From NCBI GenBank assembly GCA_964538585.1, contig CAZIEX010000003.1, forward strand, positions 1 to 36,212: a stretch of 36,212 bases of DNA, given 5' to 3'. The position numbers and the translations under genes are program-made. Shown here piece by piece: positions 2,663-35,928 of the stretch. Under the pieces are notes generated by a model. The model was not told the DNA's origin and did no database searches. It saw only the letters and a list, made by a program, of their open reading frames with translations. This stretch comes from an uncultured Mycoplasmatales bacterium (GTDB taxonomy: Bacteria > Bacillota_I > Bacilli_A > Mycoplasmatales > Mycoplasmoidaceae). The stretch's first letter is position 1. Each line of letters opens with the position of its first letter.

Positions 2663-2670
2663 AATACTTA

Positions 2671-2676
2671 ATTATA
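2671..2676 (-). promoter_or_regulatory. -10 box TATAAT, 8 nt upstream of the ATG at 2662
   Basis: The + strand attata is the reverse complement of TATAAT. Confidence 0.4.
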
Positions 2677-2704
2677 TATTAAGATTTTTGCATATTTTAA
2701 TAGA

Positions 2705-2729
2705 TAATTACTATGTTTTTGAGTAATTA
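2705..2729. promoter_or_regulatory. Perfect 8-bp inverted repeat TAATTACT-N9-AGTAATTA upstream of rubrerythrin (candidate operator)
   Basis: Arms at 2705..2712 and 2722..2729 are exact reverse complements. The repeat ends 6 nt before the -10 box. Confidence 0.35.
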
Positions 2730-2735
2730 CATTTA

Positions 2736-2741
2736 TATAAT
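2736..2741 (+). promoter_or_regulatory. -10 box TATAAT, 8 nt upstream of the rubrerythrin ATG
   Basis: Exact hexamer, with spacing consistent with a leaderless transcript. Confidence 0.4.
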
Positions 2742-2749
2742 ATTTTTGT

Positions 2750-3292
2750 ATGAAAAAATTACAAGGTACAAAAACAGAACAAAATTTGCTAACTGCTTTT
2801 GCAGGTGAATCTCAAGCAACTAACAAATACACTTATTATGCTTCTGCAGCAAAAAAAGAAGGATATGTTGAAATTGCTAACATTTTTACTGAAACTGCTG
2901 GAAATGAACGTGAACATGCTAAAGTTTGATTTAAACTACTACACAATGGTAAAGTTCCTTCAACTTTAGAAAATTTAAAAGATGCAGCAAAAGGTGAAAA
3001 TTATGAACATACACAAATGTATGCTCAATTTGCTAAAGAGGCTAAAAAAGAAGGATTTAATGATATTGCTCGATTATTTGAATTAGTTGGCAAAGTTGAA
3101 AAGCGTCATGAAGAGAGATACTTAAAATTTGCTAAAAAAGTAAAAGATAAAAAAGTATTTAATTCTCCTAAAGCAAGACTATGAATTTGTTTAAATTGTG
3201 GAACTGTTATTTCTAGTAAGACTGCTCCTATTAAATGTCCTACTTGTAGTCATCCACAAAGCTACTTTGCTCCATATAGAGAAGAAGAATAA
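2750..3292 (+). CDS. rbr: Rubrerythrin (180 aa): diiron four-helix bundle plus C-terminal rubredoxin-like CxxC...CxxC
   Basis: Not in the ORF track because two in-frame TGA codons split it into sub-threshold pieces. Translation gives [51 protein letters not shown], then CLNCG...CPTC. Confidence 0.9.
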
Positions 3293-5100: not shown

Positions 5101-5952
5101 ATGCGTTTTTTAAGGGTATTTTTGCATTACTTAGGGTTTCCTTTTGTTTTATTATCATTTGGTATAAAATTTTTAAGAATTAAAGGAAAATACCAAAAAT
5201 ATAAGAACAATCCTAGCAGTTATCCATTAGAGGAAAGGTATTATGCCGTTTATAAATTAGCAAAAAAGGCCATATATTTAAAAAATTACAAAATATACAC
5301 TAGTGGTTTTGATAAAATCCCAACAACACCAGCTTTGTATATTGCTAATCATAAATCTTCAGCTGACCCATTAATGTTATTTGTGAAATTGTATGAAAAT
5401 AGAAAAATACCTTATTTTCAATTTATTGCTAAAATTCAAGCTAGTAAAGGAAGAATAGGTTATGCTCTTAAATTGATTGATACTATTTTTATTGACCGTG
5501 ATAATTTCCGTGAAACTTATGAAATGTATCAAAACAAAATTAACCCAATTAAAGATAAAAGATCAATTGTTTTGTTTATTGAAGGTACACGAGTATATGA
5601 ACAAAACAAGTTAGGAAATTTTCATTCAGGTTCTTTACAAATTGCATACAAAAATTTAATTCCTATTATTCCACTTGTTATTTATGGTTCAAGTGGATCA
5701 ATGCTTGATGATAAAGATAGATCTTTTTCTAACCGTCATAAACAAATTTTCATCAGTTGTTTAGAAAAAATATCACCTCATCAGTTTTCAACATCTAATA
5801 TAGTTAGTTTTTCTTCATCTTTAAGAGAGAAGTTTCAAAAAGAAATAACTCGTATTGATAATATTGTTCAAAAAGCACCAAAAAAATATATAGAAGATCC
5901 TACAGAAATATTTGATCATCTTGATCAACAAGATGAAGAAAAAAGGTATTAG
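5101..5952 (+). CDS. plsC: 1-acyl-sn-glycerol-3-phosphate acyltransferase (283 aa)
   Basis: HX4D motif (NHKSSAD), an FIEGTR motif and an N-terminal hydrophobic segment. Confidence 0.85.
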   Translation: MRFLRVFLHYLGFPFVLLSFGIKFLRIKGKYQKYKNNPSSYPLEERYYAVYKLAKKAIYLKNYKIYTSGFDKIPTTPALYIANHKSSADPLMLFVKLYENRKIPYFQFIAKIQASKGRIGYALKLIDTIFIDRDNFRETYEMYQNKINPIKDKRSIVLFIEGTRVYEQNKLGNFHSGSLQIAYKNLIPIIPLVIYGSSGSMLDDKDRSFSNRHKQIFISCLEKISPHQFSTSNIVSFSSSLREKFQKEITRIDNIVQKAPKKYIEDPTEIFDHLDQQDEEKRY

Positions 5953-9262: not shown

Positions 9263-10443
9263 TGTTTTATTTCAACTAAATATGAAGAATTATCATTATG
9301 AGAAGAAAGCTTGTTTATGATTCTACTACATTGAGATAATTCTAAAATCTTATTATTATCTAAAATATAAATAGGTTCTCTATCTTTGTGATAGATTTCA
9401 GTAATTTTTGGGCTAACAATCCCACAAAAATAAGACTTATTAATTTTGGTAGATTTTTTATTAACTCTTTTAATAGAAATTAAAAGATTATTGTTATAAG
9501 CCTTGTATAAGTTTTTTAAAATTTCATCATCTTCATAATGAAGAGATTCAATGAATGATAAGAAAATATAATCATCAAGTTGTAAAAATTGTTCAGTAGT
9601 AAATATCTTGTTTTCAAATAAAGGGATAAAAAATTTGAATAAGCCATATGAATCTTTAAACTCAAAGTTTTGCTTATATAAATCTTTTACTCTTCTAAAA
9701 ATTTGTTCTACTAAAAAATCTTTAGCAATGATTTTTGGATTGTTATAAACTTGCTTATACATATGATAACGACCAATAAGCAAATTTTCTATATCACCAA
9801 CTGCTTTTTTATTAAAAACAATATTTCCATTGATTAAATTAGCTTCTTTAATTAAGTAATCAGGATTTATTTGACCAAAAGCAGCTCCAGTATATCAACT
9901 ATCTCGCATTAGATAATCCATTCGATCAGCATCTATTTGAGAGTCAATTAATTCAGTCGCTCATTTAAATTTAGATTTTGTTGATAATATTTTGATTACT
10001 TCATCCAAATTTATATTGTGTTTTTTTAAAATTTTGTAAATATTTCCTTTAGGATTAGTGAAAATTAGTTTTGAATATTGCTCATGAGAAATATTTGTAT
10101 ATTTTTCAAATGAGTGAGAAAGTGGTCCATGACCCAAATCATGTATCAAAGCAGCACAAAGAAGATGCTTTGATTCTTCAGGGTATAGCTGGTTTAGTTT
10201 TAACTGATTTATAAATTTTTTAGTTATTTGATAAGTACCTAATGAATGTGACAATCTAGTATGAGTTGCAGATGGAAAGAAACAATAAGTTAGACCTAAT
10301 TGATGTATTCTTGATAATCTTTGAAATTCAGGTGTTTCAACTAATTCATGCATCCAATAATTTTCATCTTTGAATGAAATGGTTTTTAGAATTGGGTCAA
10401 CAAAAAACGATTGTTTTAAATAATTTTTATTTGCGTTCTTCAT
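9259..10443 (-). CDS. HD-domain dNTP triphosphohydrolase-like protein (SAMHD1/EF1143-type, 394 aa)
   Basis: RLSHSLGT, HDLGHGPLSH and DADRMDYLMRDSW motifs. The two track fragments are in the same frame and are joined through TGA. Confidence 0.8.
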
Positions 10444-11356
10444 TTTCAGATATTAATACAATTGGATCTTTAAATTTAATTGCAACGATAAGAGCATCAG
10501 AACCAGCATGAGCCATTAAAACATTGGGAAATTGTTCTTCATAAATTGTTGAAGAATTACCATATATATTTTTAAATCATTTTTTAGTATCCTCAATTTC
10601 TTCTGAACTCACTAATTTATTTTCAATAAACATAATATCTTTGATTAATTCTGGCTTAAGTTCATTTTTAATTGAATTTTCAAAATACTTCAAAATTTTA
10701 TTATTAATAGATTTTGCACTAAATAAAATTTTGTAAAATCTCATTCCTCTAACATCTAAAGAAACCATTATTTTACTGTTAATAGAATTTAGAATATATC
10801 CAGATAATCGACCAAGTCTTCCACCTTTGAATAGAAACCTTGGACTATTTACAACCATAATACCAATTATTTTGCTTTTAGCTATTTCTGCATATTCTTC
10901 AGCTCAATCTTTGGTTAATATTCCTTCATCTCTTGCTTTAATAAAATCATCAATAAAAAATTTAAACATTGGGCCACCCATATGATTTTTTATGATGTAG
11001 ACATTTCTATATTCTGAAGCAACTATTTGTCAAGTATTTTCACTTCCTGAAACTGTTTTAGTGATTGGTAATACATAAATTTCATCATATGAATCTGTCA
11101 ATCTATCTAGTAGATCAATAATTTCACCAGCAGAAGCTTGTGATGTAGTGATAGTGTAGTTTTTATCTTCTAATCATTCCATCATTTGTTTTTGATCACA
11201 TTCATTCTCTTTATAAGATTTTGTATTATTTTGTCCATTTTCACTATTTTTATTTTCAACGTTGATTATTAAAGGCAAGACATAAAAATCAGGAAATTGT
11301 TCATTTTTATATCCTGAAGAGGAATCAGTAATAATAGCTATTCTTTTTTTATCCAT
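10427..11356 (-). CDS. degV: DegV family fatty-acid-binding protein (309 aa)
   Basis: N-terminal IAIITDSSSG and C-terminal MAHAGSDAL. A GGAGGAG SD lies 7 nt upstream. The 3' end overlaps the HD gene start by 17 nt. Confidence 0.85.
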
Positions 11357-11359
11357 TTT

Positions 11360-12232
11360 TTACTCCTCCAAATATATTGCAAATACGTCATCTCCAGTAT
11401 GGGAACAAATAATTCCAGGAAGTTCACCAAATGAATATTGACAATTTGCAGTTTTTGTTTTTTCTTTCAATAATTCAATAATTTTTAAGAAATCTTTATT
11501 TTCTTTTTGTGTAGGAGGACAAATAAATGCAATTCTTTTTACTTTGTTAATATCGAATTCTGATTGTCTGATTTGATTTTCTTCTAATATCAAATCTAGA
11601 CCTTTTTCAACAGATTTAGTTGTTTTAAAGAAATTAAGTCCATCATTATCAAGAGTGATGATAATTTTTAAACCCAATAAATTAGCAACTAGAGATTTAA
11701 GATTGCTAACTCTTCCACCAAGAACTAATTGTGATAAATCATTAACAAACAAATATCCACGCTTGTGTTTATTGATTTCATCCATATATTTTTTGAATGA
11801 ATCATCATTCAATAGATTAGATTTAACCATTTTTAATAAATCTAAAATTGTTCATTCTAATCCAAGAGTCACATCATATTGTTCATACACAAATAATTTT
11901 GGATAATCATTAGCAAGAATTTTTCAAGTTGATAAACTACCAGAAATTTTGCTAGGAATGGGTAAAACATAAATTCGATCATATTTATCATAAATTGATT
12001 CAACTAAACTTACAATTTCCCCCATAGATGCTTGTGAAGTTTTAATCAATGTATTTTTTTCATTTAATTTCTTACATATTTCTAGTAAAGATATATCTTC
12101 ATTATCATGATATGTTTTGATATTTCCATCTTTATCTTGTATTGAAACAATTAATGGAAGAACATAAACATCAGGATATTGAGAATTCTTGATTCCACTA
12201 CTAGAATCAACAATAAAACCAATTTTGTCCAT
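11360..12232 (-). CDS. degV: DegV family fatty-acid-binding protein (290 aa), tandem paralogue
   Basis: IGFIVDSSSG N-terminus. The fragments at 11360.. and 11924.. share a frame. Confidence 0.85.
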
Positions 12233-12261: not shown

Positions 12262-12861
12262 ATGATTGGGGTATTTTACAATAAATCAACTTTAAATAAC
12301 ACTTTAGTAGTTAATTTAAGTGATAAACCAATTGATCATATTAGTAATACTGATTTATTTTCAATTATGTATGATAAAGAAAATAAGATTCTTGGATTAA
12401 ATATTTTAAATTGAAATAATGTCTATCCTGAATGTCCAATTGGTTTTTTACATTTAACACCTAATATTTGTAATTTTATTAAGATTATTACAAAAATTGA
12501 TTTGTTTGAATATTTAGATTCAAATGATTTTGTTATTGGACAAGTTGTAAAGTGTGTTGAAATACCTAATACTCATTTACATAGTACTGAAGTTAATATT
12601 GGTAGTGAAACATTGAATATTGTTTGTGGTGCTAAAAACGTAAGAGAGGGTTTAAAGGTAGTAGTGGCTAAAATTGGAACCATATTGCCTAATGGTTTTA
12701 GAATCAAACCCTCTGAATTAATGGGATATAAATCATTTGGAATGCTTTGTAGCACCAAAGAACTTAATATTCAAGGTAAATTCAATGATCAAGGTATTAT
12801 TGAATTATCTGATAAATATAAAGTAGGATCTAAATTTTTGGATTTATTTTCTAATAAATAG
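12262..12861 (+). CDS. ytpR: YtpR-like stand-alone tRNA-binding-domain protein (199 aa)
   Basis: The C-terminal half (GQVVKCVEIPNTHLHSTEVNIGSETLNIVCGAKNV...) resembles the PheT/CsaA tRNA-binding fold. The N-terminal 80 codons are recovered by reading a TGA as Trp. Confidence 0.75.
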
Positions 12862-13690
12862 ATTTGGGGTTTGGTAATAACCTAAAAGAATATTTTTATT
12901 GCTTTTTTTCTTACTAATATTTCATCATTTGGTTTTTTGCAAACCATATTCAAATCAATGTAAGGCTTCAATTATTAGTAATCCACCAATTGCTAGTATC
13001 ACCATACATCATTCTCAGCTTATTTTTAATATATCCATAACTGCTTCATATTCTCCACCTGGTAATCAATCAGCAGGTAACAAGCCGGTAACATGATCAG
13101 TAATTTTTCCATTAAAGCAAATCATTACTAAACAAATGTATAAAAAATAAAATGCTAAAACTGCTAAAGTTCATAAGCAAGTTTTTCATGAATCATTAGG
13201 TGTATTAAGTAATATTAGCATTCCTGTAAAAGCATTTAAAAAATGAATTAAGAAATATGCTTCATTCGGAGATATACCAAAGAAAATATATTGAATAGTT
13301 CATGATGCTTGCGGATCAAAAGCTATTCCTCCAGTGATAGTTAATAATCCTCCAAATAAAGAACAAGGTGCAATATATAAAGCAATTTTTCTATTTGGAT
13401 TAATTATTACTACAGGATGTAATAGGAAGCAAAATGCTGGACACAAATCTAGCATAAACACTTTAGATATGTAAATACTTTCTACATATTCATATCCTGT
13501 TCTCCATTCATTAATCAGATTTTTTAGGTCTATTGAAAATCTAAAAGCAATTATTAGACTTAAACAAATAGTTCCATAAATAATTCAAAACAAATAAGAA
13601 TTTGTAATTTTTCTTATAAAATGGATGAATTAATACTACAAAAAGAAGTATTAATCATGTGGATAGAGTAAGTCCGGCACCAGCACTCAT
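12844..13690 (-). pseudogene. YwaF/TMEM164-like polytopic membrane protein, apparently interrupted by a +1 frameshift near 13618..13621
   Basis: The ATG at 13690, 4 nt after the pyrG stop, opens a 48-codon frame (MSAGAGLTLSTWLILLFVVLIHPF...). The rest (IRKITNSYLFWIIYG...MLDLCPAFCFLL...) continues in the +1 frame down to 12844. Total length is 847 nt, which is 3n+1. Removing one T from the TTTT run restores a 282-codon ORF. The alternative is an intact 249-aa gene starting at the TTG at 13593. Confidence 0.5.
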
Positions 13691-15311: not shown

Positions 15312-15356
15312 AAAATATATTTATATTTTAATATTAAGATTTTGAATAATCAATGA

Positions 15357-15364
15357 TGTATAAT
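15357..15364 (+). promoter_or_regulatory. TATAAT -10 box (15359..15364) preceded by TG, 7 nt upstream of the flavodoxin ATG
   Basis: TGTATAAT read directly in the 60-nt divergent pyrG/flavodoxin intergenic region. The TG abuts the hexamer, so this is not the canonical TGnTATAAT extended -10 spacing. Confidence 0.45.
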
Positions 15365-15371
15365 TTTTAAT

Positions 15372-15902
15372 ATGAAAAAAAGAATAGTTATTTATTTTTC
15401 ACATTCTGGTGAAAATTGATCAAAATCTGGATTAGTAGTGTTAAAAGAAGGCTTTACTAAAAATTTAGCAAAATTTATTCAAAAGCAGCTTGGATCAGAT
15501 ATTTTTGAAATTGAAGAATCTATTCCATATACTTTAGAAAGTTATGATGAATGTGTAAAAGAATCTAGACCACATTTTAAAGAATATAAATTAGTTCCAA
15601 TTAAAAAATATTTAGAAAATTTAGAAGATTATGATGAAATATTCTTAGGTTTTCCTATTTGGTTTGGGACTTACCCAATGCCAGTAGCTACTTTCTTTAA
15701 TAAATACAACTTAAAAAATAAAAAGGTGAACCTTTTTGTAACTCATGGTGGAGGTGGAAAATCAAGAAGCTTAGAGGATGTGAAAAATAAATTATTGCCT
15801 AATTGCGATATTGATGATAAACCACTTGTAATTTTTGGTGATACCAATCTATTATTTGATAATGAAAAAACTATTTTAAATTGAATAAAAGAGCATGAGT
15901 AA
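15372..15902 (+). CDS. Flavodoxin-family protein (176 aa)
   Basis: MKKRIVIYFSHSGENW... is a flavodoxin-like N-terminus. Extended at both ends of the track ORF through TGA codons. Overlaps the tatD start by 8 nt. Confidence 0.75.
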
Positions 15903-23497: not shown

Positions 23498-24193
23498 TTA
23501 TTTAATTGTGGTAGGTATTATATCTTCTGTCAACTTTTTTATTGCTGCTTTTGCAGCATCTTGTTCAGCAATCTTGATTTTTTTTCCTTTGCCTGTACCA
23601 TAGCATATTCCATCAAGATATAATTTGGTAGTGAATGCGTTATCATTTAGTTTAGTTGTGAGATATTTAATAGTGTTTTTGTTATATTTTTTTGTTAACT
23701 CTTGAAATAATGATTTGTAATCAGTTGAAAAATTAAGAGCAGATTTAATATTTTTATCTGTACATAATGTATTAATAACAACTTGTTTGGCAATATCAAA
23801 TCCTTGATCAAAATAAATTGCTCCAATTAGTGCTTCATATACATCTTCATAGATTTTATCAAGGTTTTTATTAATATGAAAACTATTACCAATAAGGAAA
23901 TAGTGATTAAGTTTTAATGCTTTAGCAACTGTAATTTCAGAGTGAGATTGAACAATGATAGTTCTTAATTTAGAAAGATTACCAACCTTAGCATTTGGAT
24001 TTACAGAATTTAAGAAATCACTAGTAGATAAACTAATAACTGCATCACCAATAAATTCTAATTTTTCATAATTATATGGCAAATGATGATCATTTGCATA
24101 AGATGAATGAGTTAAAGCCTCAATATAGTAGGAAATTTTATTGGGTTTAATTCCTAGCTTTTCAAGCAATTCATGAATCAAACTATTTTCCAT
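23498..24193 (-). CDS. rnc: Ribonuclease III (231 aa)
   Basis: EKLEFIGDAV catalytic motif and a C-terminal dsRBD. Confidence 0.95.
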   Translation of the reverse strand: MENSLIHELLEKLGIKPNKISYYIEALTHSSYANDHHLPYNYEKLEFIGDAVISLSTSDFLNSVNPNAKVGNLSKLRTIIVQSHSEITVAKALKLNHYFLIGNSFHINKNLDKIYEDVYEALIGAIYFDQGFDIAKQVVINTLCTDKNIKSALNFSTDYKSLFQELTKKYNKNTIKYLTTKLNDNAFTTKLYLDGICYGTGKGKKIKIAEQDAAKAAIKKLTEDIIPTTIK

Positions 24194-25160
24194 TAAAATA
24201 TTCCTTTGCTTTTTCTATATAGTTTGATTTAATCATTTCATATAAAATTTTTAATCCAGCATATGTTTGTTTAGCATCACTTGAACCGTGGATTTTTACT
24301 GCAGGTTTATTCAATCCCAAAATCATTGCTCCAGCATTACCTTTATAATCAAAAGCTTTATTAAAAGAGAGAAATGATCCAATAGAAGTTAAAGCTCCTA
24401 ATCAATTTCAAGGTTTTTTGTATTGTTGAACTAATAAGTCTTTAACTTTAGTTAAAGTACCTTCGGCAGTTTTTAATAGAATATTCCCTGTATATCCATC
24501 ACAAACACCAATATCAATAGTATCAGCAAATGCATATTTAGGTTCAATGAAGCCTAAGTAATTTAAATTTTTATCCTCTCTTAGTAATTTATCTGCATCT
24601 TTATGATATTGATATCCTTTAGTTTGCTCAGTTCCAATGTTAATAATTCCAATTCGAGGATTTTCAACATGAAGAATTTTATTTCAAAATATTTTTGCTA
24701 ATATAGCAAAGTTATATAAATCTTGTCCATTGCAATTGATGTTTGCACCAACATCAATAATGTTCATTACCTTATTTTTATTGATTGGAAAAAATGGCAT
24801 AAATCCAGGTTTTAATCCTGGCATCAATGTTTTTAATAAAAAATAACATAAAGAGACATAACAAGCAGTAGAACCTGATGAAATAACACCTTCAACTTTG
24901 TTATTCATCAAAGCTTCAATTGCTTTATACATACTTGAATCAGTTTTACGTAAAGTGTCAATTGGTTCATCAGTAGGATTAACTACATCACTAGCATCTA
25001 ATATGGTGAATTCGTTTTCTTTGATATATTCTTGAATATTAGTTTGTTTGCCAACAAGTAAAATTTCAACATCTTTATGCTTTTTAGCAAAAGAACGACA
25101 CGCAGTTATCATGTCTTTTATATTAGTTTCAGAACCCATTAAATCAAAAGCTATCTTCAT
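24183..25160 (-). CDS. plsX: Phosphate acyltransferase PlsX (325 aa)
   Basis: The C-terminal 167 codons were translated through three TGA codons: NPRIGIINIGTEQTKG...GFIEP...CDGYTGNILLK...KIHGSSDAK. Overlaps the rnc start by 11 nt. Confidence 0.9.
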
Positions 25161-25162
25161 AG

Positions 25163-26002
25163 TTATTCAAGTAATAAAAAATTAGTTAAAAAGTAATCAA
25201 AATCTTTGAAATGTTTGATGATTGCTTCATTAGGAACATCAATTACAATTTTTCCTTCTTTAATAACAACACAACGTTTAGTATGATATAAAATTTCTCG
25301 AACATTGTGGCTAGATAAAACAAGAGTAGTTTTATGTTCATCTACGTATTCACGAATAATGTTATTTAAATAAAATTGCATATCAACATCAAGGGCAGTA
25401 GATAATTCATCTAAGAATACAATTTTTGGATTTGTCATAAAGCATAAAGTAACATTTAATCTTTGTTTTTGACCACCAGATAATTTATATGCATTATGAT
25501 TTAATAGTTCCTTTAATTGAAATAGATCAATTAAATTAGCAATATCTTTAGGAGCCAAAGGATTAATAATAATTGAATTTTGAATTTTTATTAAGTCATA
25601 GACTGTAAAACCATAAGGACAAGAAGCATCTTGAAATTGAATACCAATAGCTTCTTGCGGAGTTTTTTTGTAAGGAAATAAATATTCAATAGTTCCAGCT
25701 GTTTGTTTCTCTAATCCAATAATTATTTCTAGTAATGTTGTTTTACCTGCACCATTTGCTCCAAGTAAAGCGATTTTATCATTTTCATAAATAGTTAAAT
25801 CAATATTTTGTAAAACTAGATTGTGTTTAAATAAATTAACATATATTTTTGATAAATTTTTAATTTTAATTACTGGTTTATTGGAACCAGGAGTGGGTTG
25901 AAAACAATTAAATTTAGAAAGAAGTTTAACAAAATGAGGATCTACTTTTTGTTTAATTTCTTTGTTATTAATATTATCTTTAGTTTTGAGCTTTTTTTTC
26001 AT
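25163..26002 (-). CDS. ABC transporter ATP-binding protein B (279 aa) with a roughly 43-aa basic N-terminal extension
   Basis: Walker A GANGAGKTT, signature LSGGQKQR, Walker B IVFLDE and an H-loop SSHN. Confidence 0.9.
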   Translation of the reverse strand: MKKKLKTKDNINNKEIKQKVDPHFVKLLSKFNCFQPTPGSNKPVIKIKNLSKIYVNLFKHNLVLQNIDLTIYENDKIALLGANGAGKTTLLEIIIGLEKQTAGTIEYLFPYKKTPQEAIGIQFQDASCPYGFTVYDLIKIQNSIIINPLAPKDIANLIDLFQLKELLNHNAYKLSGGQKQRLNVTLCFMTNPKIVFLDELSTALDVDMQFYLNNIIREYVDEHKTTLVLSSHNVREILYHTKRCVVIKEGKIVIDVPNEAIIKHFKDFDYFLTNFLLLE

Positions 26003-26010
26003 GTTAATAC

Positions 26011-28074
26011 CTAGTTATTTTTCTTTTTATATTCCAATCTAGCTTTTGATTTTTTAACAAGTGAGGTTACAAAAAGTATGACTATTACAACACCTACCAA
26101 TCCATAGCAAATTCCTAAGATGGTATATTCAGTGTAGCTTTTTGTAAAACCAGTAATATCATAAGTGATATTTCAAGTTTCATTGAATAATCCAAAAATA
26201 GCTGTAGCAATTTGATTGATTGAAGCATTTTCAGATATATTTAACGAAGAAGGAATATATTCATCATGCGAAATTGCTCCAAATCCTACAATTTGAATTT
26301 TTCCTGCAACATTGTTACTATAAGATGTGCCAGTATGAACATCAGTTGGAGAATTGTACAAATCACTAGGTATAACTGATGTTCCTAATTGATCAGTTTG
26401 ACATCCACTTAGTGCAATAAAATCTTTTAAAATATTAGAAAAAGCATATTTATATTGTGTTGCATGATTAGAAAAATAACTTGGAAGAAGTGAATAATCA
26501 ACTATTTCATCATATCTACTAAGATCTTCAGAAAAACCATAACTTAAACTTGGATAATTAAAAGCTAAATTTTCTTCAGGGAAAGTAAGTCCATACTTCA
26601 AATAATGAGCTAGCTCATTAGAAGTGGTACAAAAACCATCAGTTTGATATACACCTAAACCAAGAATATACTCAATAGTATTAATAAAACTATCAGAATC
26701 AATGTAATTGTATGTTGTATAAGTCATATAACTACGTTGGTAAGAAAAATAAATGTAATTTGGTAGAAGTTCAGCAAGTATAGGTTCTTTTCAACTTTCA
26801 ACCATAGATTGTCAATTATGTCTATCTAGAATTGATGGTGAACTATTTTCGATCAATAAAAAATTGATATATGAAAGATAGTTGTAGTCCAAATCTACAC
26901 CAATATTATCATCAATTGTATTTTTTCATTTACTTCCAATTGGTGAAGCATCATCATAGTTTTCATATCGACATTTAACAAGAGTTAAGAGTGAGGGATA
27001 ATCAGTATAAGTTGTGAATAATTCATTTCGAGAAGCAAAAGTTGTTGAATCAGATGTAGGAACTCAATTATAACTTTTATCAAAAGCACGATATGAATAT
27101 GTATTAATATAGCATAAATGATTATGAGATAAATTTATACCTGTTATACAACCATCAGTATTTGTATTAGTACTATTTCTGCTATCTACTGCTGCTGCAC
27201 CATTCATTTGTAATAAAACATTAGGATAAGTTGTTGTATCTTCAAACAATCAACCATCACAATTCTTGTTTGGAATTGAAGCTATATTGGGAACAATTCG
27301 TAGAGAGTTATAACTTAAATCAATAGTTCCAATACTAGCTTTAGTCTCAGATGTACCACAATTGTTTAAGGCAGTAAGTATAGCATCTCATAACATTGGA
27401 TTCAATAAAGACAAAACAGCATTATCTCGATCTAGATCATTAGATAGAAGAGTAGAGAAATCTAAATCAAGTTGTTTAGTAGTGGTATCAATATTATTCA
27501 ACACAAAATCATTAATGGTTTCATATGTACATTTATCTTCATAAATGTCACCACCATTATCAAAATACAAAGCAAGATTACGGTCTCCAGCAAAAACTTG
27601 ATAAAAAGTGTTGGCATTAACATCACTATCATCTGCAGCAATGTAAGCAAAACAATTAGCTGCTTCTCAATTAGTGTTGACACTATAAGTGTTCATTGGA
27701 GTTGAACAAGGATTATTATCTAAATTATAAATACATACATTAGTATTGTCATCATAGTAAAGGTTACGATAACGATCAAGTGTGTAGTCATAATTATTTG
27801 ATATTTCACTACGATAAACAGAAATTAGGTTAATATTTTCTTTAGTAATATCAGGGTAATAATATTGTTGATTAATATTAGATAAAGAATGATAATTGTG
27901 TGTGAAAGGAGTAAAAGAAAAAGAATTTTTTGGTGTGTATTCAGAAGTTAAACTGTAATTTACAGTTTGATATGGTGATTGACCATACAAAAATAATGCA
28001 GTACAGCAAGTAGTGGCTGCTAGAGCAGCTGCTGTGATTGTTAAGATTGATTTCATTAAATTAATTTTTTTCAT
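26011..28074 (-). CDS. P2: 687-aa double-anchored surface protein (N-terminal TM, Tyr/Asn/Ser/Thr-rich ectodomain with LRR-like motifs, C-terminal TM plus basic tail)
   Basis: Four track fragments in one frame, joined by TGA. I translated all the gaps and found no TAA or TAG. The ATG at 28074 is preferred over the track start at the GTG at 28086. The C-terminus is ...ILGICYGLVGVVIVILFVTSLVKKSKARLEYKKKNN. Confidence 0.75.
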
Positions 28075-28088
28075 ATTATCTTTCACAT

Positions 28089-28919
28089 TTACAAATGCAC
28101 ATTTACAAAACTAGAAATATCTTTGTATTTTTTTAGAATTTTGGCAACATCAGCATCAATTGATATCTTACCATTTTCTAGAAATATTATTCTATTTGCT
28201 AATTTTTCAATTTCTAAAATATTATGAGAAATACAAATTAATGTACATTTGTGCTTTTGAATATATTGTTTGATGTAATTTAGAATTTTTTTCTGTGAAA
28301 AAACATCAAGACCAGTAGTCAATTCATCCAAGAAAATAAGTTGTGGTCGAGAAACTAATGCTAAGAAAATATTCAATCTTTGTTTTTGTCCTCCAGATAA
28401 ACTATTTGCTTCAAAATTCATAAGTTTTCTTAAATTAAATACATCGATCATTTCTTCTTTTTCATTAGGATCAACAAAATTAAAATTTCTAATTTCAATT
28501 AAGAAATTAATAATATCTTTAACTGCTAAACCAGTTGGATATGATGAAGTTTGAAATTGTACTCCCAGTTTTTCATAAGGAGAATTTAAATATGAAAAGC
28601 CAAAATTAATATTACCCATTGTTATTGGTAAAACTCCAGAAAACATTTCAATTAACGTTGTTTTTCCTGCACCATTTTTTCCTACCAAAGCAATACAATC
28701 ACCATCATAAATTGTTAGATTTAAATGATTAATTACTGTTTTTCTTTTCTTTTTGCTATGAAGATTGAAAATTTTAGTAACATCTGTTGCTTTTAAAATA
28801 ACTTTTTTATTAGGATTAGGAGTATATGCTAAACTTTGATCAAATTTAACTACTTTCTTTCTAGCACAAGTAGATTTTGAACTATTTAAATATTTAGTAA
28901 TTTTTTTCAAACTTCACAT
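28089..28919 (-). CDS. ABC transporter ATP-binding protein A (276 aa), paralogue of 25163..26002
   Basis: GKNGAGKTT, LSGGQKQR and LIFLDE motifs. The ATG at 28919 is followed directly by TGA (MWSLKK...), whereas the track begins at an internal TTG at 28910. Confidence 0.9.
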
Positions 28920-28923
28920 ATTG

Positions 28924-29796
28924 TTAATTTGTTTCTCTTCTTAATAAAATTACAGAAGTGCATATAGCAAACACACCATAAGGCACTGTCATATTTAGAA
29001 TTTTATCCACTGGAGTTAAAACAAGAAATGGGTAACTGGTTAGTCCATTAAGTTGTGCATAATATGGAGTAGAAAAATCAAAAATACTTGATCCATAAAC
29101 ATTAAATGTACTTGCTTTAGAATAAATAGCTTCAAAAGCAGAAGTTACTGGATAACGGACAAAATCAATATAGCTAATATATCACAAGCTAGGATGTTGT
29201 GATGGTACTAAACAAATAGGTGTTAAAAATCCGGCAAGTACAATTGATAAAAAGACAATTAATGTACCTACTAAAGAAATTACTGATACACTTTTGCAAA
29301 CCATTCCCATCATTGCACCAAAAGACATTGCAGTAATAAGATTTATGAAAATTACATATATAAGATCTAATCAATTGATTTGTCTAAAAGTAAAGAAAGT
29401 GATGTCTAACATTTCAGTTGATGAGAGACAGCACAATAAAACAGAGGCTAATGATATAAAAACAGTAATGATATTTAGAACACTATAAAACAAAATTCCA
29501 GCAATTGGTATTTTTCAAGGTTTGATAGATGAAGCCACAAGCATTTTACTAAATATTGAGTTCTTCAATTCAAAGATAGATTGTGGTAAAATCAACAAAC
29601 TTAACAAGTACATTGTTAAGAATATGATTGCTGGAATAATTAGTTCACCAATTGCAATTGATGTAGTTGAATTAATATGTAGGTTGTAAGCTGTTAAAAA
29701 TAGGAAAACAATGATAACAGGAATTACAAAAGTTAAAATTGGTCCAAAAATGGATTTTCAATAATTTTTATTGTAAATCTTTATCAATGAAAACAT
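28924..29796 (-). CDS. ABC-2-type transporter permease (290 aa, about 6 TM)
   Basis: Absent from the track because TGA codons break it up. My translation MFSLIKIYNKNYWKSIFGPILTFVIPVIIVF...RRETN is open from ATG to TAA. It shows six hydrophobic spans and a roughly 70-aa loop before the last one. Confidence 0.8.
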
Positions 29797-29801
29797 TTTC
29801 T

Positions 29802-31550
29802 TTATTTTTTATCCTGATAAATCATTTGAATATCTTTTTGCTTTCTTTTTTCAATTACTTTCTTTTTAAAAAATAAGCAATAGATAATGATACTAATGAG
29901 TGCAAAAGCAATACAACCAAGTATTATTCCCTCTAGAATCCACATTACATTTACATGTTGATATCCACTTATTGAAATAGAAAAGAAATATGCAATTGTA
30001 GATGAAGGTGTATAAATTGTATAGTCCTCATTCTCATATGAACAAAAATTAGGATCACCAACATTAATAGAAAGACATATTTGTCCAGTATTTGTTGAAT
30101 AATCTGGATATGCATAGAAGTTATTGCTTCCATATATGGCATTAACAAGTATTTGCATATCAGTTAATTCATCAAATATGTAATTAGAAGACAAGAAATT
30201 TTCATTTAGATATGTGATAATTAAAGCTTCAAGACATTCGCCATTTGTATACTCTTTACTACTTGTAAGTAGACTCAATTCAGGAATTAAATTAGCTAAA
30301 TCTTGATTTGTTGTGCTTAATTTCAAACTACTAGGTTCAACACCATATTTTTCAAGAATAAAATTATTAATTGCTAATTTAATAACATTAGTATTAGTAT
30401 AAATAGCAGTTGTTTGATAATTATTTGTTAAATCTTCTTCAGTAGTAGAATCAGGTGAAGTAACTAAAACATTAGTATATTGATATAAAGGAGCATCTAA
30501 TTCAGAAATACTAGGCGAAAATAAGTTTCTTAAATAATTACCATATACTTCAATAGTTCCATAAGTAGTAGTACTTGTAGCCATTAAATTGGTAATGTCA
30601 TATCCAGCTTCTTTAATATGAGAACTAGCAGATCTGTAAGCAAAGGTATAAGGCAATATTGTTAAATGATTGTTTGATAAATTAATATCACTTAAATTAC
30701 TAAAACCAGAATATTGAGCACTTGAACCATAATCAGATGAAGCAATTGTTTCGTTGGTTGCTCTAAAAATATAACATTTTTCATATGTTGATTCAGAACT
30801 CGGAGTTACATCAACATAACCAAAGAAAGGAACATATCAAAGATCATTATTTGATAAATCAATTGAAGTAAAATAACTATAAATTGAACTTGAGTAACCA
30901 CTTGGTATTTCATAAAAGAATGGGCAATTTAATACTTTTACGGTGTCATCAGCATAAGGATCACTTAAAAAATCACCTTCTAAGTCTAAACAAACATCAT
31001 TACCAGAAGCTGATTGAGTTTGCAAATTAGTTATGATTTGTGATGCACTAACATATGAGCTATCAATATTACCAGATGTTCCTTCAGCCAAAGTGCAAAA
31101 GAATGAAGCCAATTTTGAATTTAGAAAAAATTGATGATAAGTAAGATGTTCAGGGTGGAGTGGTCATCCATTTTGATCAAAAAAATCTTCAGGATCTTGT
31201 GTATAGCTTTCAGGAACACTTATACCAAGTAAATTTCATAATTGCACATAATCAGGAGCTAATGTATGAGAAGTAAAAGTGGTTTCATAATAATCTGTGT
31301 TTGTTGAATCAACACTAGCAGAATACATATGTGGTGTAGGATATGTGATAAAACCGACAGAATTTGATAATGTTCGCGGTGAAAGTTCTACATAAGTATC
31401 ATTTATAAAATCATTGCTAGAACTTTTAAGAGAAATGTTGTAATTATTAAATGTTGTATTGTTATAACCAACAAAAGCAATAGTAGCAATGCCACCAATG
31501 CCTAATAAACCTAATAATGATCTTAAAAAATTTTTATTTCTTTTTTTCAT
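29802..31550 (-). CDS. P1: 582-aa double-anchored surface protein, paralogue of P2
   Basis: Three track fragments in one frame, joined by TGA, with the gaps translated. N-terminus MKKRNKNFLRSLLGLLGIGGIATIAFVGY and C-terminus ...ILEGIILGCIAFALISIIIYCLFFKKKVIEKRKQK.... The ATG at 31550 overlaps the galU 3' end by 17 nt. Confidence 0.75.
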
Positions 31551-32436
31551 GTTCAGCAATTATTTTCTTAATATGTTTGAAATATTCTTCACTTATTTCT
31601 GGGTCTTTTAGAGCACAATAATTTGTTGCATCTAGATAACCAATTTTTGACCCAGCATCAAATCTTTGGCCATTAAATACACAACCATAGATTTTTTTAT
31701 TATTTTTTAGCATATATTGAAGAGCATCAGTTAGTTGAATTTCTCCACTCTTATCTGGGGATATATTATCTAATGCATCAAAAATATCAGGAGTCAAAAC
31801 ATAACGGCCTAAAATAGCATAATCACTTGGTGCTTTATCTATATCAGGTTTTTCAACTAGGTTATTAATGTTTAACAAAGTGCTTGATTTATCTTTTTTA
31901 AAATCAAGAATTCCATACTTGTTAACAGTATTATGACTAACTTTTTGGGTACCAACTATTGATGATTGTGTTTGCTTAAATGCTTCAATACATTGTTTGA
32001 TAGCATTTTTCATACCTTGCTTTTGAAAAACTAAATCATCACCAAGAATTACAGCAAATGGTTCATTACTGCAAAAAGTTTGAGCACATTTGATAGCATC
32101 ACCTAATCCTTTTGGCTCTTTTTGACGAATAAAATGAATGTTAGCCATTTTAGAAATGGACTTAACCATTTCATACATTTTCATTTTTTTATTATTTAAC
32201 AATCTTTGCTCTAATTCAAATGAAGAGTCAAAATAATCAACTATTGAATTTTTATGAGATGAAACAATAATAAGAATTTCATCTATTCCAGCTTCCAATG
32301 CTTCATTAACAATGTAATGCATAGTAGGAACAGTCAAAATAGGTAGCATTTCTTTTGCTAATGCTTTAGTAACTGGTAAAAAGCGAGTGCCCATACCTGC
32401 TGCTGGTATTACTACCTTTTTCACAGTTTGAGTCAT
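31534..32436 (-). CDS. galU: UTP--glucose-1-phosphate uridylyltransferase (300 aa)
   Basis: VIPAAGMGTRFLPVTKALAKEMLPI N-terminal signature and LGDD, VEKP motifs. Confidence 0.95.
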   Translation of the reverse strand: MTQTVKKVVIPAAGMGTRFLPVTKALAKEMLPILTVPTMHYIVNEALEAGIDEILIIVSSHKNSIVDYFDSSFELEQRLLNNKKMKMYEMVKSISKMANIHFIRQKEPKGLGDAIKCAQTFCSNEPFAVILGDDLVFQKQGMKNAIKQCIEAFKQTQSSIVGTQKVSHNTVNKYGILDFKKDKSSTLLNINNLVEKPDIDKAPSDYAILGRYVLTPDIFDALDNISPDKSGEIQLTDALQYMLKNNKKIYGCVFNGQRFDAGSKIGYLDATNYCALKDPEISEEYFKHIKKIIAEHEKKK

Positions 32437-32462
32437 AAGTATTATTAGAGTATTATATATAT

Positions 32463-33734
32463 TTATACAAAAGAGTGCAAGATGAAGAATTTGATAAGTT
32501 TATTATCAAGTTTTGCAAAAGTAGAGTTGAACATAATGCTAAAATCATGAATAAATGTTTTAAAAAAAAGATTTAAGTCTTTTGAACTGAATCTTCTTTG
32601 GTTAACAAAGATTTTCTTAGGTATCTTGTATTTATCAAAATAGTCTAGTAAATAGTTTATATTTGTGATAACATTAGAATTGTTTTTTTTACTCACACCT
32701 AGGAATAATTTTAAAAGATCAGTATAAAAAAATTTTAATTTTTTTTCATCATTTTTTAAGATTGACAAGAAGGTATATAAAAGCACGGCATTAATTGTGC
32801 AAGTGTTAATAGAATAACGAGAAGCAATACAATTGGCTATATGCTCAACAAAATTAGAATCTATATTAGCATTTGCAGTTCCAATTAAAAAAGAGCATAT
32901 ATTGATATCACCATCATCAAATTTACTAGTATTTAACATTTCTAGAATTATTCTAATTGCTGCTATTAAATGAGTTTTCATTTGTAAACTATATGTTTGG
33001 GAAAAGTAAGAAAAAAATCCTCTTGCAAGTAGTGAGAAGACAATCTCTATTTTTTTATCATTATCTTGATTGTCTTGAGTAGCAAAAATCAGTGTAGTTG
33101 GTACTAAAGAAGAGTCAGTAATGCAATAGAAATTGTTTTTATTTAGTATTAGGGATTTATTTGATATTTGTAAACCATCTGTTAGTTCATTACAATAAGA
33201 GACAAAAGGATTAATTGGTTTTTTAATAAGATTACCAAGTTCATAGTAATAATATGGCTTTTGAGAGAAGTATTGAACTAATATGCTCTTAGCTTGATTT
33301 TGAAAATTATCGTTACCAGCTAAAATAAAATTTTGAGTTTTAATTATATGACATTCAGTTTCTACATAATTAATCAAATCATTATCAATTTTTGGATTAT
33401 CAATTTTATGAACTAATAATTTATTTTTCTTTGCATATATTTCAATGTCATTTTTGTTTGTTAGTATTAAAGAAAATTTTAAATTGTTTTGAATATTATT
33501 TAAATGATTATCTTTTGAGAAGCTAACATATCTAGGCAAAGTACAAGTATATTCTACTTGCCTTTGATTTCTTAAAAAAGGTACAAGCCATTGAAAGAAT
33601 CTCAGTTTTGATATTTTATTAATTAAAATTCTAACAAATTTTAATTTGTTGATAAAACTCATAATATATCTAACAATAACCATGTTAGTTCTTAAAAATA
33701 AAAAGAAAATGTTACTAAAGATACTAAAAAACAT
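32463..33734 (-). CDS. Hypothetical protein H2 (423 aa), no family recognised
   Basis: Long uninterrupted ORF from ATG to TAA with a basic/hydrophobic N-terminus. The start is uncertain, with alternative in-frame ATGs at 33683 and 33662. Confidence 0.7.
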   Translation of the reverse strand: MFFSIFSNIFFLFLRTNMVIVRYIMSFINKLKFVRILINKISKLRFFQWLVPFLRNQRQVEYTCTLPRYVSFSKDNHLNNIQNNLKFSLILTNKNDIEIYAKKNKLLVHKIDNPKIDNDLINYVETECHIIKTQNFILAGNDNFQNQAKSILVQYFSQKPYYYYELGNLIKKPINPFVSYCNELTDGLQISNKSLILNKNNFYCITDSSLVPTTLIFATQDNQDNDKKIEIVFSLLARGFFSYFSQTYSLQMKTHLIAAIRIILEMLNTSKFDDGDINICSFLIGTANANIDSNFVEHIANCIASRYSINTCTINAVLLYTFLSILKNDEKKLKFFYTDLLKLFLGVSKKNNSNVITNINYLLDYFDKYKIPKKIFVNQRRFSSKDLNLFFKTFIHDFSIMFNSTFAKLDNKLIKFFILHSFV

Positions 33735-34557
33735 AAAATTTCAATAATTTCTCTTTTATTTCTGCAATTTTATCATTACTAAATGTTTGGATTATTTTTT
33801 CATTTTTACTAATAATCTCATCTAAACTATTTAATAACTTTTTGCCATCTAAAATTAGATATTCTTCAAATTCTTCCATTGATCGAGAATACTGAAAATA
33901 TTTACTTACAATATGTTTGGAATCATTAGCAAGTAAATTATTTAAAATATTTTGGTAAATATTATCAACTTGTTCAAGAAAAATTGCTGTCTTAGGATTG
34001 CGCATTTTTTTATTGCAAAAGTTATCTCATGTTTCTAATTTATTTGTAATTTCAAACAAATTTTCAATTAAACAAGCTGCTAAAATCTGCAAATATTTAT
34101 CATCATTTTTATTTAAGACATTAAGGGCTAATCCTATAGCACACAAAAAATGCTTTTTATAGATAGATAATTCAACAAGTTTATGATGAAAGTTACTATA
34201 GACACAATAAGGAATGAATTTAGGATCAAAAATTAAACTATCTTTGATTTCAACTATCCCAGAAGAACTTAACAATAACCCTGGAATATTTTCAATAATT
34301 ATTAAATTTTGATATTTGCAGTGAGTTTTGAATCAACAAACATCTTTGTAAGTTCCAAAAACAACTGCAATGTCAAAATTTAACTTTTCAGAATTTTTAT
34401 TGTTTTTTATTTTTTTGCCATTAATTATTTTTACTAGTTTAAAACGATAAAGCAAACTTCATACTAAACATAAAAATTTTCAAGGAACAAATTTTGAAAA
34501 ATAAATTAGTGAAACTTTTTTTGCTTTAATAGATTTAATCAATCACACAATTTGCAT
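33724..34557 (-). CDS. Hypothetical protein H1 (277 aa), no family recognised; first gene of the minus-strand array
   Basis: Track ORFs 33724..34005 and 34027..34275 are in one frame and separated by TGA. Reading five more TGA codons extends the frame upstream to the ATG at 34557. The N-terminus is hydrophobic and basic (FVPWKFLCLVWSLLY). Confidence 0.65.
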
Positions 34558-34644
34558 GACTGATTTTAAACCAATTATTGTTTTTCTAGGAAAATAATAT
34601 TGTTTCACAATAAATATAATATTTTATATTAAGATGTTTTAAAT

Positions 34645-35928
34645 ATGAACAAAACAACATTCATTAAACAAAAAATGCAAGATTTGCTTAAAGTTGCATA
34701 TGGTTGTACTGAAATAGGTGTAATTGGTTATCCATGTTCTTTAGCATATGATCAAGTAAAGGGCGAAGAAATTAAGCAATTGACATTAGAAATTTCTCCT
34801 TTTATCTATAAAAATGCTTCACGTGTAGGAGTACCAAATATGGGAAGATGTGGTATTCCAATGATGGCTGCTACTGGTGCTTATATATGTGCTCCAGAAC
34901 GTAAATTAGAATTATTTTCTAGTGTTAATTTAAAACAAAAATCTGCAGCTAAAAAATTGATTGAAAGAAAACGAGTTAAAGTTATTGTTAATGATCAAGT
35001 AAACCCTGTTTATGCTGAAGTTCGATTAGAAACAACAAAGGGCAATAATGTGGTAGTTAGAATTGAAAAGGAACACGATAATGTTGTATTTATTAAAAAG
35101 AATGATTTTTGTGTTCGAGAACAAAAACAAAAAGAAGAAACTATCACAGTTCATAAAGAAGAATATTCAGCTAATGATTTCAGCATTAAAGAAATAATTA
35201 AGATTGTTGAGTCTTTACAGGAAAAAGATTTGTCTTTTTTGACTCAAGTATTTAAAATCAATCAAGAAATTTCTAGTTATGGTTTGAAACATAAAACTCC
35301 TGGATCATATACTGATATTTTTGCTAAAACATTTAAAAAACCCAACTGAAGACAACAAATTATTTTAGATACTGCTGCAGCTATTGATGCACGAATGCGT
35401 GGTGATTCATTACCAGTAATGTCTTCTTGTGGTTCAGGTGATCATGGATTAACTATTTCAATTCCTCAATATTCTTTTCATAAGCTAATGAAAACTTCAA
35501 ATATTCGTTTCTTAAGAGGTTTAGCAATTGCAAATCTATTAACATGAATTATTAAACAAAATATTGGTAGTTTGTCTGCTTTATGTGGTAGTGTTATTGC
35601 TGCTGCAACTTCAGCTATGGTTGGCATTGCTTACCAAAGCGGATGAACATATAGTAAAATATCAGCTCTTATTGAAGCAATGTTATGTGCAAATGCTATA
35701 TGTATATGTGATGGAGCAAAATCTAGTTGTACATTCAAAGTATCATCAGCATTATCATCTGGATTTATGATTTTTGATATGGTAGAGAATAATTATAAAA
35801 TCACAGCAAGAGATGGAATAGTAGGAGATGATCCTAAGACAATTATTGAAGTTTTTAAAACTATTTCTAGTGAAAATAGCTTGAAATTGAATAATTCCAT
35901 AGTTAAAATGTTAAATTCAATAAATTAA
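34645..35928 (+). CDS. UPF0597 / L-cysteine desulfidase-like protein (CyuA/YhaM family, 427 aa)
   Basis: N-terminal VAYGCTEIGVIGYP and SSCGSGDHG motifs and a Cys-rich C-terminal half (CANAICICDGAKSSC). The fragments share a frame. Confidence 0.75.

Follow-up and report, generated by a model that had tools for sequence, protein, structure and literature searches.

The stretch of DNA analysed here, 36,212 nucleotides (nt) from an uncultured Mycoplasmatales bacterium (assembly GCA_964538585.1, contig CAZIEX010000003.1; hereafter the window), harbors on its minus strand a five-gene module of one permease of the ATP-binding cassette type 2 (ABC-2) fold, two ATPases (A and B) and two large surface proteins, here called P1 and P2. 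The system is a lineage-restricted version of an ABC-2 transporter, and its pair of surface partners is new. With a probability of roughly 0.55, P1 and P2 are accessory surface subunits of a type V ABC transporter with a heterodimeric ATPase. The module is best explained as vertically inherited and specific to an anaerobic, uncultivated lineage of mycoplasmas that includes Candidatus Mycoplasma (Malacoplasma) girerdii (hereafter Ca. M. girerdii), an uncultivated symbiont of Trichomonas vaginalis.

Read with genetic code 4, the genes follow each other in the order galU, P1, ABC-2 permease, ATPase A, P2, ATPase B, plsX, rnc, smc and ftsY (Table 1). The gaps from P1 to plsX measure 5, 4, 14 (2 with a GTG start), 8 and 2 nt; between galU and P1 there is an overlap of 17 nt. 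The G+C content of the window is 24–29% and TGA codes for tryptophan: 3 to 8 in-frame TGA codons are found in P1, P2 and the permease, and open reading frames (ORFs) of at least 100 amino acids (aa) add up to 12,833 aa under code 4 versus 7,348 aa under code 11, an approximate doubling. The gene order, coordinates, small gaps and galU overlap listed in an earlier, sequence-only note on this DNA are thereby reproduced, and the module of one permease, two ATPases and two surface proteins exists as described there.

Conservation, transporter core and expression

Relatives of P1 and P2 are rare. A word-indexed search of 5.8 billion proteins returned 5 relatives of P2 and 2 of P1, and an exhaustive HMMER search with a P2 profile against 1.84 billion representative proteins returned 22 matches, approximately 12 of them full length. 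With a narrow peptide pattern, at least one locus was found among the 185,579 species genomes of GTDB, in a metagenome-assembled genome (MAG) of the Mycoplasmataceae, and at least one, of the same MAG lineage, in the JGI metagenomes. The orthologue cluster of P2 contains MGM1_0350 and B1217_0035, two 'hypothetical proteins' of Ca. M. girerdii; a further family member is a hypothetical protein from a 657-kb Mycoplasma sp. MAG.

We compared the gene neighborhoods of 13 related loci (L001 to L013, with L008 representing Ca. M. girerdii). A member of the family adjoins ABC-2 permease or ATPase genes in all 13, which bears out the linkage of P1 and P2 homologues to ABC genes that the earlier note had put up for testing. 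Wherever flanking sequence exists (L001–L010, L012 and L013), the order is P1-permease-ATPase A-P2-ATPase B-plsX, with P2 always located between the two ATPases, and this order persists while the identity of P1 drops to 24% and that of P2 to 28%. Orthologues of P1 (24–37% identical) occupy the equivalent position in L001, L002, L003, L005, L006, L007, L008 and L013. The P1 orthologue of L006 (ENA contig, 371–2077) is split into ORFs of 359 and 203 aa, owing to a pseudogene, a frameshift or an assembly error. The contigs of L008 and L009 differ by one base, and P1 and P2 are 91.6–99.8% identical among girerdii strains. Two tandem P2-type genes are found between ATPase A and ATPase B in L001 (7908–12061), L004 (863–4019) and L005 (2029–4846); the tandem copies are only 39% identical, hence their duplication is old, and the P2 of the window is closer to the copy adjacent to ATPase B (46–55%) than to the upstream copy (40–42%). 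The single divergent layout is L011 (1–2244), in which the 3' end of an ABC-2 permease gene immediately precedes a 543-aa member (P0021) that matches both the P1 and the P2 branch; downstream of this member come a stem-loop-like sequence and a convergent gene. The system has a different layout here, and perhaps a simpler one.

The core of the module consists of the permease and the two ATPases. The permease matches PF01061 (ABC2_membrane; 42.3 bits, cut-off 26.9, E = 8e-11), has six hydrophobic segments as predicted from hydropathy, and is 41–62% identical to its orthologues across loci; a search of PDB sequences with the permease profile gave no match. Its best-conserved part is the loop of approximately 70 residues (200–273) between transmembrane (TM) helices 5 and 6, which holds 24 of the 67 invariant columns. 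In type V transporters this TM5-TM6 loop is external. Both ATPases match PF00005 (82–89 bits; E = 1e-22 for ATPase A) and contain Walker A, Q-loop, LSGGQ, Walker B with the catalytic glutamate, and H-loop, readable in both as GxNGAGKTT, QFQ, LSGGQKQR, FLDE and SHN. The best NCBIfam model for ATPase A is TIGR01188 (drrA), which scores 125.8 bits, far under its cut-off of 312. Among solved structures, both ATPases are closest to the nucleotide-binding domains (NBDs) of ABCA lipid transporters (E = 1e-40 to 1e-24), for ATPase A those of ABCA3, ABCA4 and ABCA1 (E = 1e-40 to 1e-38). Both also carry N-terminal extensions of approximately 45 residues, and their terminal motifs lie outside the standard ABC domain: a conserved, paralogue-specific LxYxP-type motif in the extension of ATPase A, and in ATPase B a conserved, paralogue-specific N-terminal motif (VDPxFxxLLxxFxxFQxTP) as well as a near-invariant C-terminal end (HFKDFD[YF]FL[TS]N). 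ATPase B is the best-conserved gene of the module (54–68% identity).

ATPase A and ATPase B are 43% identical to each other. In every lineage each of them is closer to its own orthologue (48–68%) than to the other paralogue (38–47%), and the duplication of surface-protein and ATPase gene therefore predates the whole clade. The comparison indicates that the two half-modules arose from an ancient duplication that copied a surface-protein gene together with an ATPase gene. A second permease is found in none of the 13 related loci, in agreement with the single permease of the window to which the earlier note had drawn attention; the permease presumably acts as a homodimer and ATPases A and B as a heterodimer.

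Expression was read from RNA-seq of Ca. M. girerdii inside T. vaginalis, given in transcripts per million (TPM; Margarita et al. 2022, Table S6, PMC9239101). The five module orthologues reach 853–2033 TPM, and plsX, rnc, smc and ftsY 605–921 TPM (values per gene in Table 1). The module is expressed during symbiosis, at even, moderate levels. This evenness fits, without proving it, one long transcript that starts at P1. In a search of the literature for the locus tags, or for an ABC-plus-LRR (leucine-rich repeat) system in mycoplasmas, no paper that discusses these genes came up.

The two surface proteins

P1 and P2 constitute a previously undescribed family of surface proteins. Neither they nor 19 family members gave a significant match to Pfam or NCBIfam, and no structural neighbor was found, in line with the earlier failure to place them by eye. 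Membership in two candidate families was rejected: P1 and P2 do not match GldG/ABC_transp_aux (PF09822) at E ≤ 0.1, and none of the 19 members matches PF09822 or Wzz (PF02706) at E ≤ 1, so that two of the families that the earlier note suggested for a check are negative; Foldseek likewise gave no match to a polysaccharide co-polymerase (PCP). PF13306 (LRR_5, the BspA-type TpLRR criterion of Fettweis et al. 2014) matches none of the 19 members at E ≤ 1.

The description of P1 and P2 as paralogues holds at the level of profiles and fails at the level of pairwise comparison. BLASTP of P1 against P2 gives no significant similarity (E = 0.15, one 22-residue motif only), whereas hhalign of the two orthologue alignments gives a probability of 97% (E = 6.6e-11) over 401 columns, covering P1 131–566 and P2 164–684. 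In a joint alignment of 19 sequences, three LxxLxLxxNxL(xxLP) motifs have Leu, Asn and Pro residues that are invariant or nearly so, and a YQ[TS] motif as well as a juxtamembrane GF motif are also kept. Since the similarity is visible only in the profile comparison and the joint alignment, the term 'paralogous' is correct only in the sense of an ancient duplication.

The ectodomains are rich in Asn (9–11%), Ser (10–13%), Thr (9–10%) and Tyr (9%), and each of P1 and P2 contains three motifs of the LxxLxLxxNxL type that are 60–80 residues apart (Table 1), which confirms both the composition and the LRR-like motifs noted before. Matches to known repeats are weak: LRR_8 scores 14 bits on P1 motif 2 (cut-off 27), and a P1 profile against PDB sequences finds designed LRR proteins (E = 1.1e-5), a weak LRR match only, while a P2 profile against the same sequences finds no match. 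We accordingly term the putative fold of the ectodomain irregular LRR-like.

The input alignments for AlphaFold were shallow (6 sequences for P2, 17 for P1). The P2 model is unusable (predicted local distance difference test, pLDDT, 39), and the P1 model (pLDDT 56, predicted TM-score 0.60) is confident only at residues ~100–245 and in the TM helix. The former part is a helical region running into the first LRR-type strands, and short strands are modeled exactly at the conserved LxL motifs. Foldseek with both models against PDB returned nothing at E < 0.2; the best matches of P1, which are not significant (E = 0.24–1.6), are LRR ectodomains (TLR8, Toll5A, TLR4, VLR, SALM5).

Of the proposed topology, a large external loop with a membrane anchor at either end and both ends in the cytoplasm, the C-terminal half stands. 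The C-terminal segment (Kyte-Doolittle 2.76–2.87 over 19 residues) is clearly membrane-spanning by hydropathy as well as in the AlphaFold model, and is followed by a Lys/Arg-rich tail with 7–9 Lys and Arg residues. In P1 this tail ([FL][RK]K..xK[KR][RK]xKDLxxI) is near-invariant in proteins that are otherwise ~30% identical. The N-terminal anchor, in contrast, does not appear to be a conserved trait. The N-terminal hydrophobic segment of P1 and P2 has a Kyte-Doolittle value of 1.87; in the P1 orthologues of L002, L003, L006 and L007 it ends in a classic mollicute lipobox (LLTSC, ILTSC or LSLC), and distant P2-type proteins have the lipobox SINC, SANC or PAIC, or in MGM1_0350 an AxA site (ATA-QS) instead. 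The P1 of the window itself has no lipobox. As read by inspection of motifs, the N-terminal segment of many or most orthologues looks like a lipoprotein or secretory signal, and a double-anchored arrangement in which N- and C-terminus both lie in the cytoplasm is therefore unlikely to be shared across the family. The architecture that appears to be conserved consists of an export signal, an irregular LRR-like ectodomain, a C-terminal TM helix and a basic tail.

Table 1. Coordinates of the module, of sequence features in P1 and P2, and of neighboring genes in the window, with expression of the Ca. M. girerdii orthologues.
Feature	Position	Strand	Model or remark	Orthologue (TPM)
P1, 582 aa from ATG	29802-31550	-	Code 4 ORF; P1 branch, family without Pfam/NCBIfam model	B1217_0038 (2033)
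ABC-2 (type V) permease, 290 aa, 6 predicted TM, sole permease of the module	28924-29796	-	PF01061	B1217_0037 (974)
ATPase A, 276 aa, DrrA/ABCA-like, ~45-aa N-terminal extension	28089-28919	-	PF00005	B1217_0036 (892)
P2, 687 aa	26011-28074	-	P2 branch, family common to P1	B1217_0035 (1094)
ATPase B, 279 aa, paralogue of ATPase A	25163-26002	-	PF00005	B1217_0034 (853)
P1 N-terminal basic and hydrophobic segment, residues 1-29	31464..31550	-	Signal anchor or signal peptide; Kyte-Doolittle 1.87	
P1 LRR-like motif 1, FTSIDLSNNDLWYVP, residues 227-241	30828..30872	-	L232, S233, N235, L237, P241 invariant in P1- and P2-types; model beta-strand 227-231	
P1 LRR-like motif 2, LSDINLSNNHLTILP, residues 286-300	30651..30695	-	N294 invariant; sub-threshold LRR_8	
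P1 LRR-like motif 3, TIEVYGNYLRNLF, residues 332-344	30519..30557	-	N338 invariant (19 sequences); model strand 332-334	
P1 C-terminal TM helix, residues 535-561	29868..29948	-	Kyte-Doolittle 2.87; model helix 535-581, pLDDT ~88	
P1 conserved basic tail, predicted cytoplasmic, KKKVIEKRKQKDIQMI...	29805..29867	-	K563, K568, R569, K572, D573, I577 invariant in 4 orthologues, 31-41% identical overall	
P2 N-terminal basic and hydrophobic segment, residues 1-31	27982..28074	-	Possible lipobox AATTC	
P2 LRR-like motif 1 with conserved extension, IGTIDLSYNSLRIVPNIASI, residues 248-267	27274..27333	-	Run I251 to I267 invariant in 6 P2-type proteins	
P2 LRR-like motif 2, ITGINLSHNHLCYIN, residues 310-324	27103..27147	-	Sole stretch aligning pairwise with P1; I313, L315, S316, N318 invariant	
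P2 LRR-like motif 3, IGVDLDYNYLSYI, residues 391-403	26866..26904	-	G392, D396, Y397, N398 invariant	
P2 C-terminal TM helix, residues 650-673	26056..26127	-	Kyte-Doolittle 2.76; model helix 648-686	
plsX	24183-25160	-	Followed by rnc, smc, ftsY	B1217_0033 (817)
rnc		-		B1217_0032 (605)
smc		-		B1217_0031 (853)
ftsY		-		B1217_0030 (921)
galU	31534-32436	-	TIGR01099	
423-aa ORF upstream of galU	32463-33734	-		
294-aa ORF	33724-34608	-	Overlaps the 423-aa ORF	

Genomic neighborhood

The earlier note had described the module as inserted between galU and plsX and had taken galU as a hint at the export of glycans or glycolipids. Neither is supported by the related loci. Only the window, L001, L007 and L013 have the galU gene (TIGR01099, 338.1 bits, cut-off 326.8) and two companion ORFs at this position; in L002 and L008 (Ca. 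M. girerdii), P1 comes immediately after a divergently transcribed PF03313 gene, without galU. Since galU is variable and the junction of the module with plsX is constant, the module is not an insertion between the two. The galU gene and the two ORFs appear to behave as a variable three-gene insert; the link to galU is incidental, and galU lies outside the system. Of the companions, the 423-aa ORF encodes a strongly diverged protein with the fold of iron-type (group III) alcohol dehydrogenases (PDB profile E = 6e-11), and the 294-aa ORF found no match in our searches. Neither is a glycosyltransferase, and none is encoded near the module. With a galU link that is not conserved, with PF09822 and PF02706 absent and with a doubtful loop topology, the glycan-export reading loses its main support.

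The PF03313 (SDH_alpha-type) gene is also present in the window (34645–35928), divergent from the gene string, and forms the upstream boundary of the module where galU is missing. Its orthologue in Ca. M. girerdii is annotated as a putative L-cysteine desulfidase and reaches 4262 TPM (PMC9239101).

The plsX of the window is 47% identical to its girerdii orthologue, and the window derives from a more distant, anaerobe-type relative of girerdii. It encodes a nitroreductase (PF00881), a rubrerythrin with a rubredoxin-like tail (PF02915, PF21349) and a flavodoxin (PF12682) at 1736–3292 and 15342–15902, a combination that suggests an anaerobic lifestyle and is consistent with a gut or mucosal, trichomonad-associated girerdii lineage. 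Two tandem paralogues of the (fatty-acid-binding) DegV family and a PlsC-type acyltransferase are found at 10427–12232 and 5101–5952, and together with plsX make the window rich in genes for lipid acquisition and assembly. A multi-pass membrane protein with DUF5378 (138 bits) is encoded on the minus strand at 12844–13593.

A scan of the window against Rfam gave no match. Scans for sigma-70 promoters and terminators in the AT-rich window yielded counts equal to those of shuffled controls and are uninformative. Region 24000–35000 is free of meaningful tandem repeats and of homopolymer or dinucleotide (phase-variation) tracts. We rejected the candidate of a variable surface lipoprotein as known from mycoplasmas: repeats and phase-variable tracts are missing, the genes are single-copy and syntenic, and the P1 of the window has no lipobox.

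Interpretation and comparison with known systems

As accessory subunits, P1 and P2 would act on a type V (ABC-2 fold) core of the single 6-TM permease and the two DrrA/ABCA-like ATPases with their full set of catalytic motifs. Each would be exported by its N-terminal signal (a lipoprotein signal in many orthologues), display an ectodomain of approximately 500–600 aa around three widely spaced LRR-type motifs, and be held in the membrane by the C-terminal helix and the basic cytoplasmic tail. Helix and tail may dock onto the permease-ATPase complex, with the ectodomains above the external TM5-TM6 loop, where they could take up or hand over a substrate that is hydrophobic or bound to a surface, or pass ATP-driven movement outward. 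The conserved tail of P1, the conserved TM5-TM6 loop and the terminal extensions of the ATPases fit such a docking model. The gene content of the module, its homologies, its conserved order, its rarity and its expression are direct results; we infer the physical association, the numbers of subunits, the direction of transport and the cargo.

Several points weigh against P1 and P2 as transporter subunits. The complex itself is a hypothesis, and both the homodimeric permease and the heterodimeric ATPase pair are assumptions. In a single clade of mollicutes, whose genomes are gene-dense and co-directional, gene order may be conserved simply because it was inherited. The structure models of P1 and P2 are weak and yield no informative fold match. 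P1 and P2 evolve much faster than the ABC components, and their variation between strains together with the variable copy number of P2 is the behavior of host-exposed adhesins or antigens. Moreover, (BspA-like) surface proteins of this lineage ordinarily consist of a signal, an ectodomain and a C-terminal TM helix (Fettweis et al. 2014, PMC4206474). It is conceivable, if rather doubtful, that P1 and P2 are ordinary LRR-type adhesins or antigens facing host or protist, merely co-transcribed with an unrelated ABC-2 efflux pump and without a part in transport. Such a role would suit their rapid divergence relative to the ABC genes, the differences between Ca. M. girerdii strains, the old extra copy of P2 in some genomes and the LRR-type motifs typical of binding proteins, in a lineage with many C-terminally anchored LRR surface proteins, which are believed to bring about contact with Trichomonas or the host (PMC4206474, PMC10557491). 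It fits less well with the strict interleaving of ATPase A, P2 and ATPase B in every lineage, which goes beyond mere adjacency, with a duplication that took surface-protein and ATPase gene together, with the conserved cytoplasmic tails, and with a family that none of the 13 loci shows apart from ABC-2 genes. The missing repeats and phase-variation tracts and the negative PF13306 result likewise speak against such a role.

Two further explanations concern the cargo. The ectodomains of P1 and P2 on a type V core could form a split ABCA-like machine that moves sterols or phospholipids between the wall-less cell and a host membrane. The closest solved relatives of both ATPases are ABCA NBDs, the order of ectodomain protein, transmembrane domain, NBD, ectodomain protein and NBD may echo the domain order of ABCA proteins, mycoplasmas depend on external lipids, and the module is always joined to plsX. 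However, DrrA-type bacterial ATPases in general resemble ABCA NBDs and the match is therefore non-specific, while plsX, rnc, smc and ftsY form a widespread conserved gene string to which the plsX linkage belongs. With no detectable similarity to ABCA ectodomains, and with one permease gene only, we consider a lipid machine of this kind unlikely. Still less probable is an exporter of glycans or glycolipids that is fed by galU and in which P1 and P2, their two ends both cytoplasmic, take the part of GldG or of polysaccharide co-polymerases. Type V ABC transporters do include exporters of polymers (Wzm/Wzt and TarGH), and galU overlaps the neighboring P1 in the window and also lies next to it in L001, L007 and L013. 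Routes to polysaccharides other than synthases are moreover an acknowledged gap in mycoplasmas (PMC11658790). Against this stand the absence of galU from the site in L002 and Ca. M. girerdii, the missing glycosyltransferase in the neighborhood, in which the ORF adjacent to galU has the alcohol dehydrogenase fold and the other is unmatched, the negative results for PF09822, PF02706 and PCP or GldG folds, and N-termini that look like cleaved or lipid-modified signals.

An improbable but far-reaching extension would make P1 and P2 a new class of extracytoplasmic ABC partners on a type V core with a heterodimeric motor. Their LRR-like ectodomains would contact the membrane or surface proteins of the eukaryotic host (Trichomonas) and either extract or exchange lipids, in the manner of a split ABCA transporter, or couple ATP hydrolysis mechanically to adhesion or remodeling where symbiont and protist meet; the module would then be the signature symbiosis device of the lineage. 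To our knowledge, almost nothing is known about the interaction of girerdii with its protist host beyond speculation on BspA-like proteins. Ca. M. girerdii and its relatives are unculturable trichomonad symbionts with relevance to vaginal and oral health, and the module is among the few gene sets that define the lineage: it is kept from the human symbiont to distant metagenomic relatives, is expressed in symbiosis, and holds two large surface proteins that databases carry as hypothetical. Should P1 and P2 prove to be genuine subunits of the transporter, they would represent a new accessory family of type V ABC transporters and a tractable target for work on structure and binding; as adhesins, they would be candidate ligands in the recognition of host or protist. 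The analysis also corrects a tempting, unsupported tie to galU-dependent glycan export.

Among known systems, GldA/GldF/GldG of Flavobacterium likewise combines an ABC-2 permease, an ATPase and a large membrane-anchored extracytoplasmic accessory protein in one operon, and the cargo of both systems is unknown. The module differs in that the accessory protein and the ATPase are each present as two paralogues. P1 and P2 resemble PF09822 neither in sequence nor in fold, and in most orthologues the N-terminus looks like a lipoprotein or secretory signal instead of a second TM anchor. Wzz and KpsE, which work with Wzm/Wzt- or KpsMT-type exporters, are also accessory membrane proteins with a large external domain and a type V partner. 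P1 and P2 do not match PF02706, their models show mixed short strands and helices in place of a long helical hairpin, and the module has neither glycosyltransferase genes nearby nor a conserved linkage to galU. The eukaryotic lipid transporters ABCA1, ABCA3, ABCA4 and ABCA7 share the type V fold, carry two large ectodomains in each transporter and include the nearest solved relatives of the ATPases. ABCA proteins are, however, single polypeptides with two transmembrane domains and with ectodomains inserted between TM1 and TM2, whereas P1 and P2 are separate proteins, have their anchor at the C-terminus and show no sequence relationship with the ABCA ectodomains. DrrAB-type efflux systems for drugs and lipids (TIGR01188) pair a DrrA-type ATPase with a 6-TM ABC-2 permease, as in the module, but have one ATPase and no ectodomain partners, and ATPase A scores far below the DrrA cut-off. 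BspA-like TpLRR proteins of Ca. M. girerdii, M. hominis and Trichomonas share with P1 and P2 the LRR-type motifs, export, a mostly C-terminal TM anchor and a common lineage; Fettweis et al. (2014, PMC4206474) describe 26 such surface proteins for Ca. M. girerdii. P1 and P2 lack a match to PF13306 and have only three widely spaced motifs of canonical type. In contrast to the dispersed multigene family of BspA-like proteins, they are single- or low-copy, syntenic and located inside an ABC operon.

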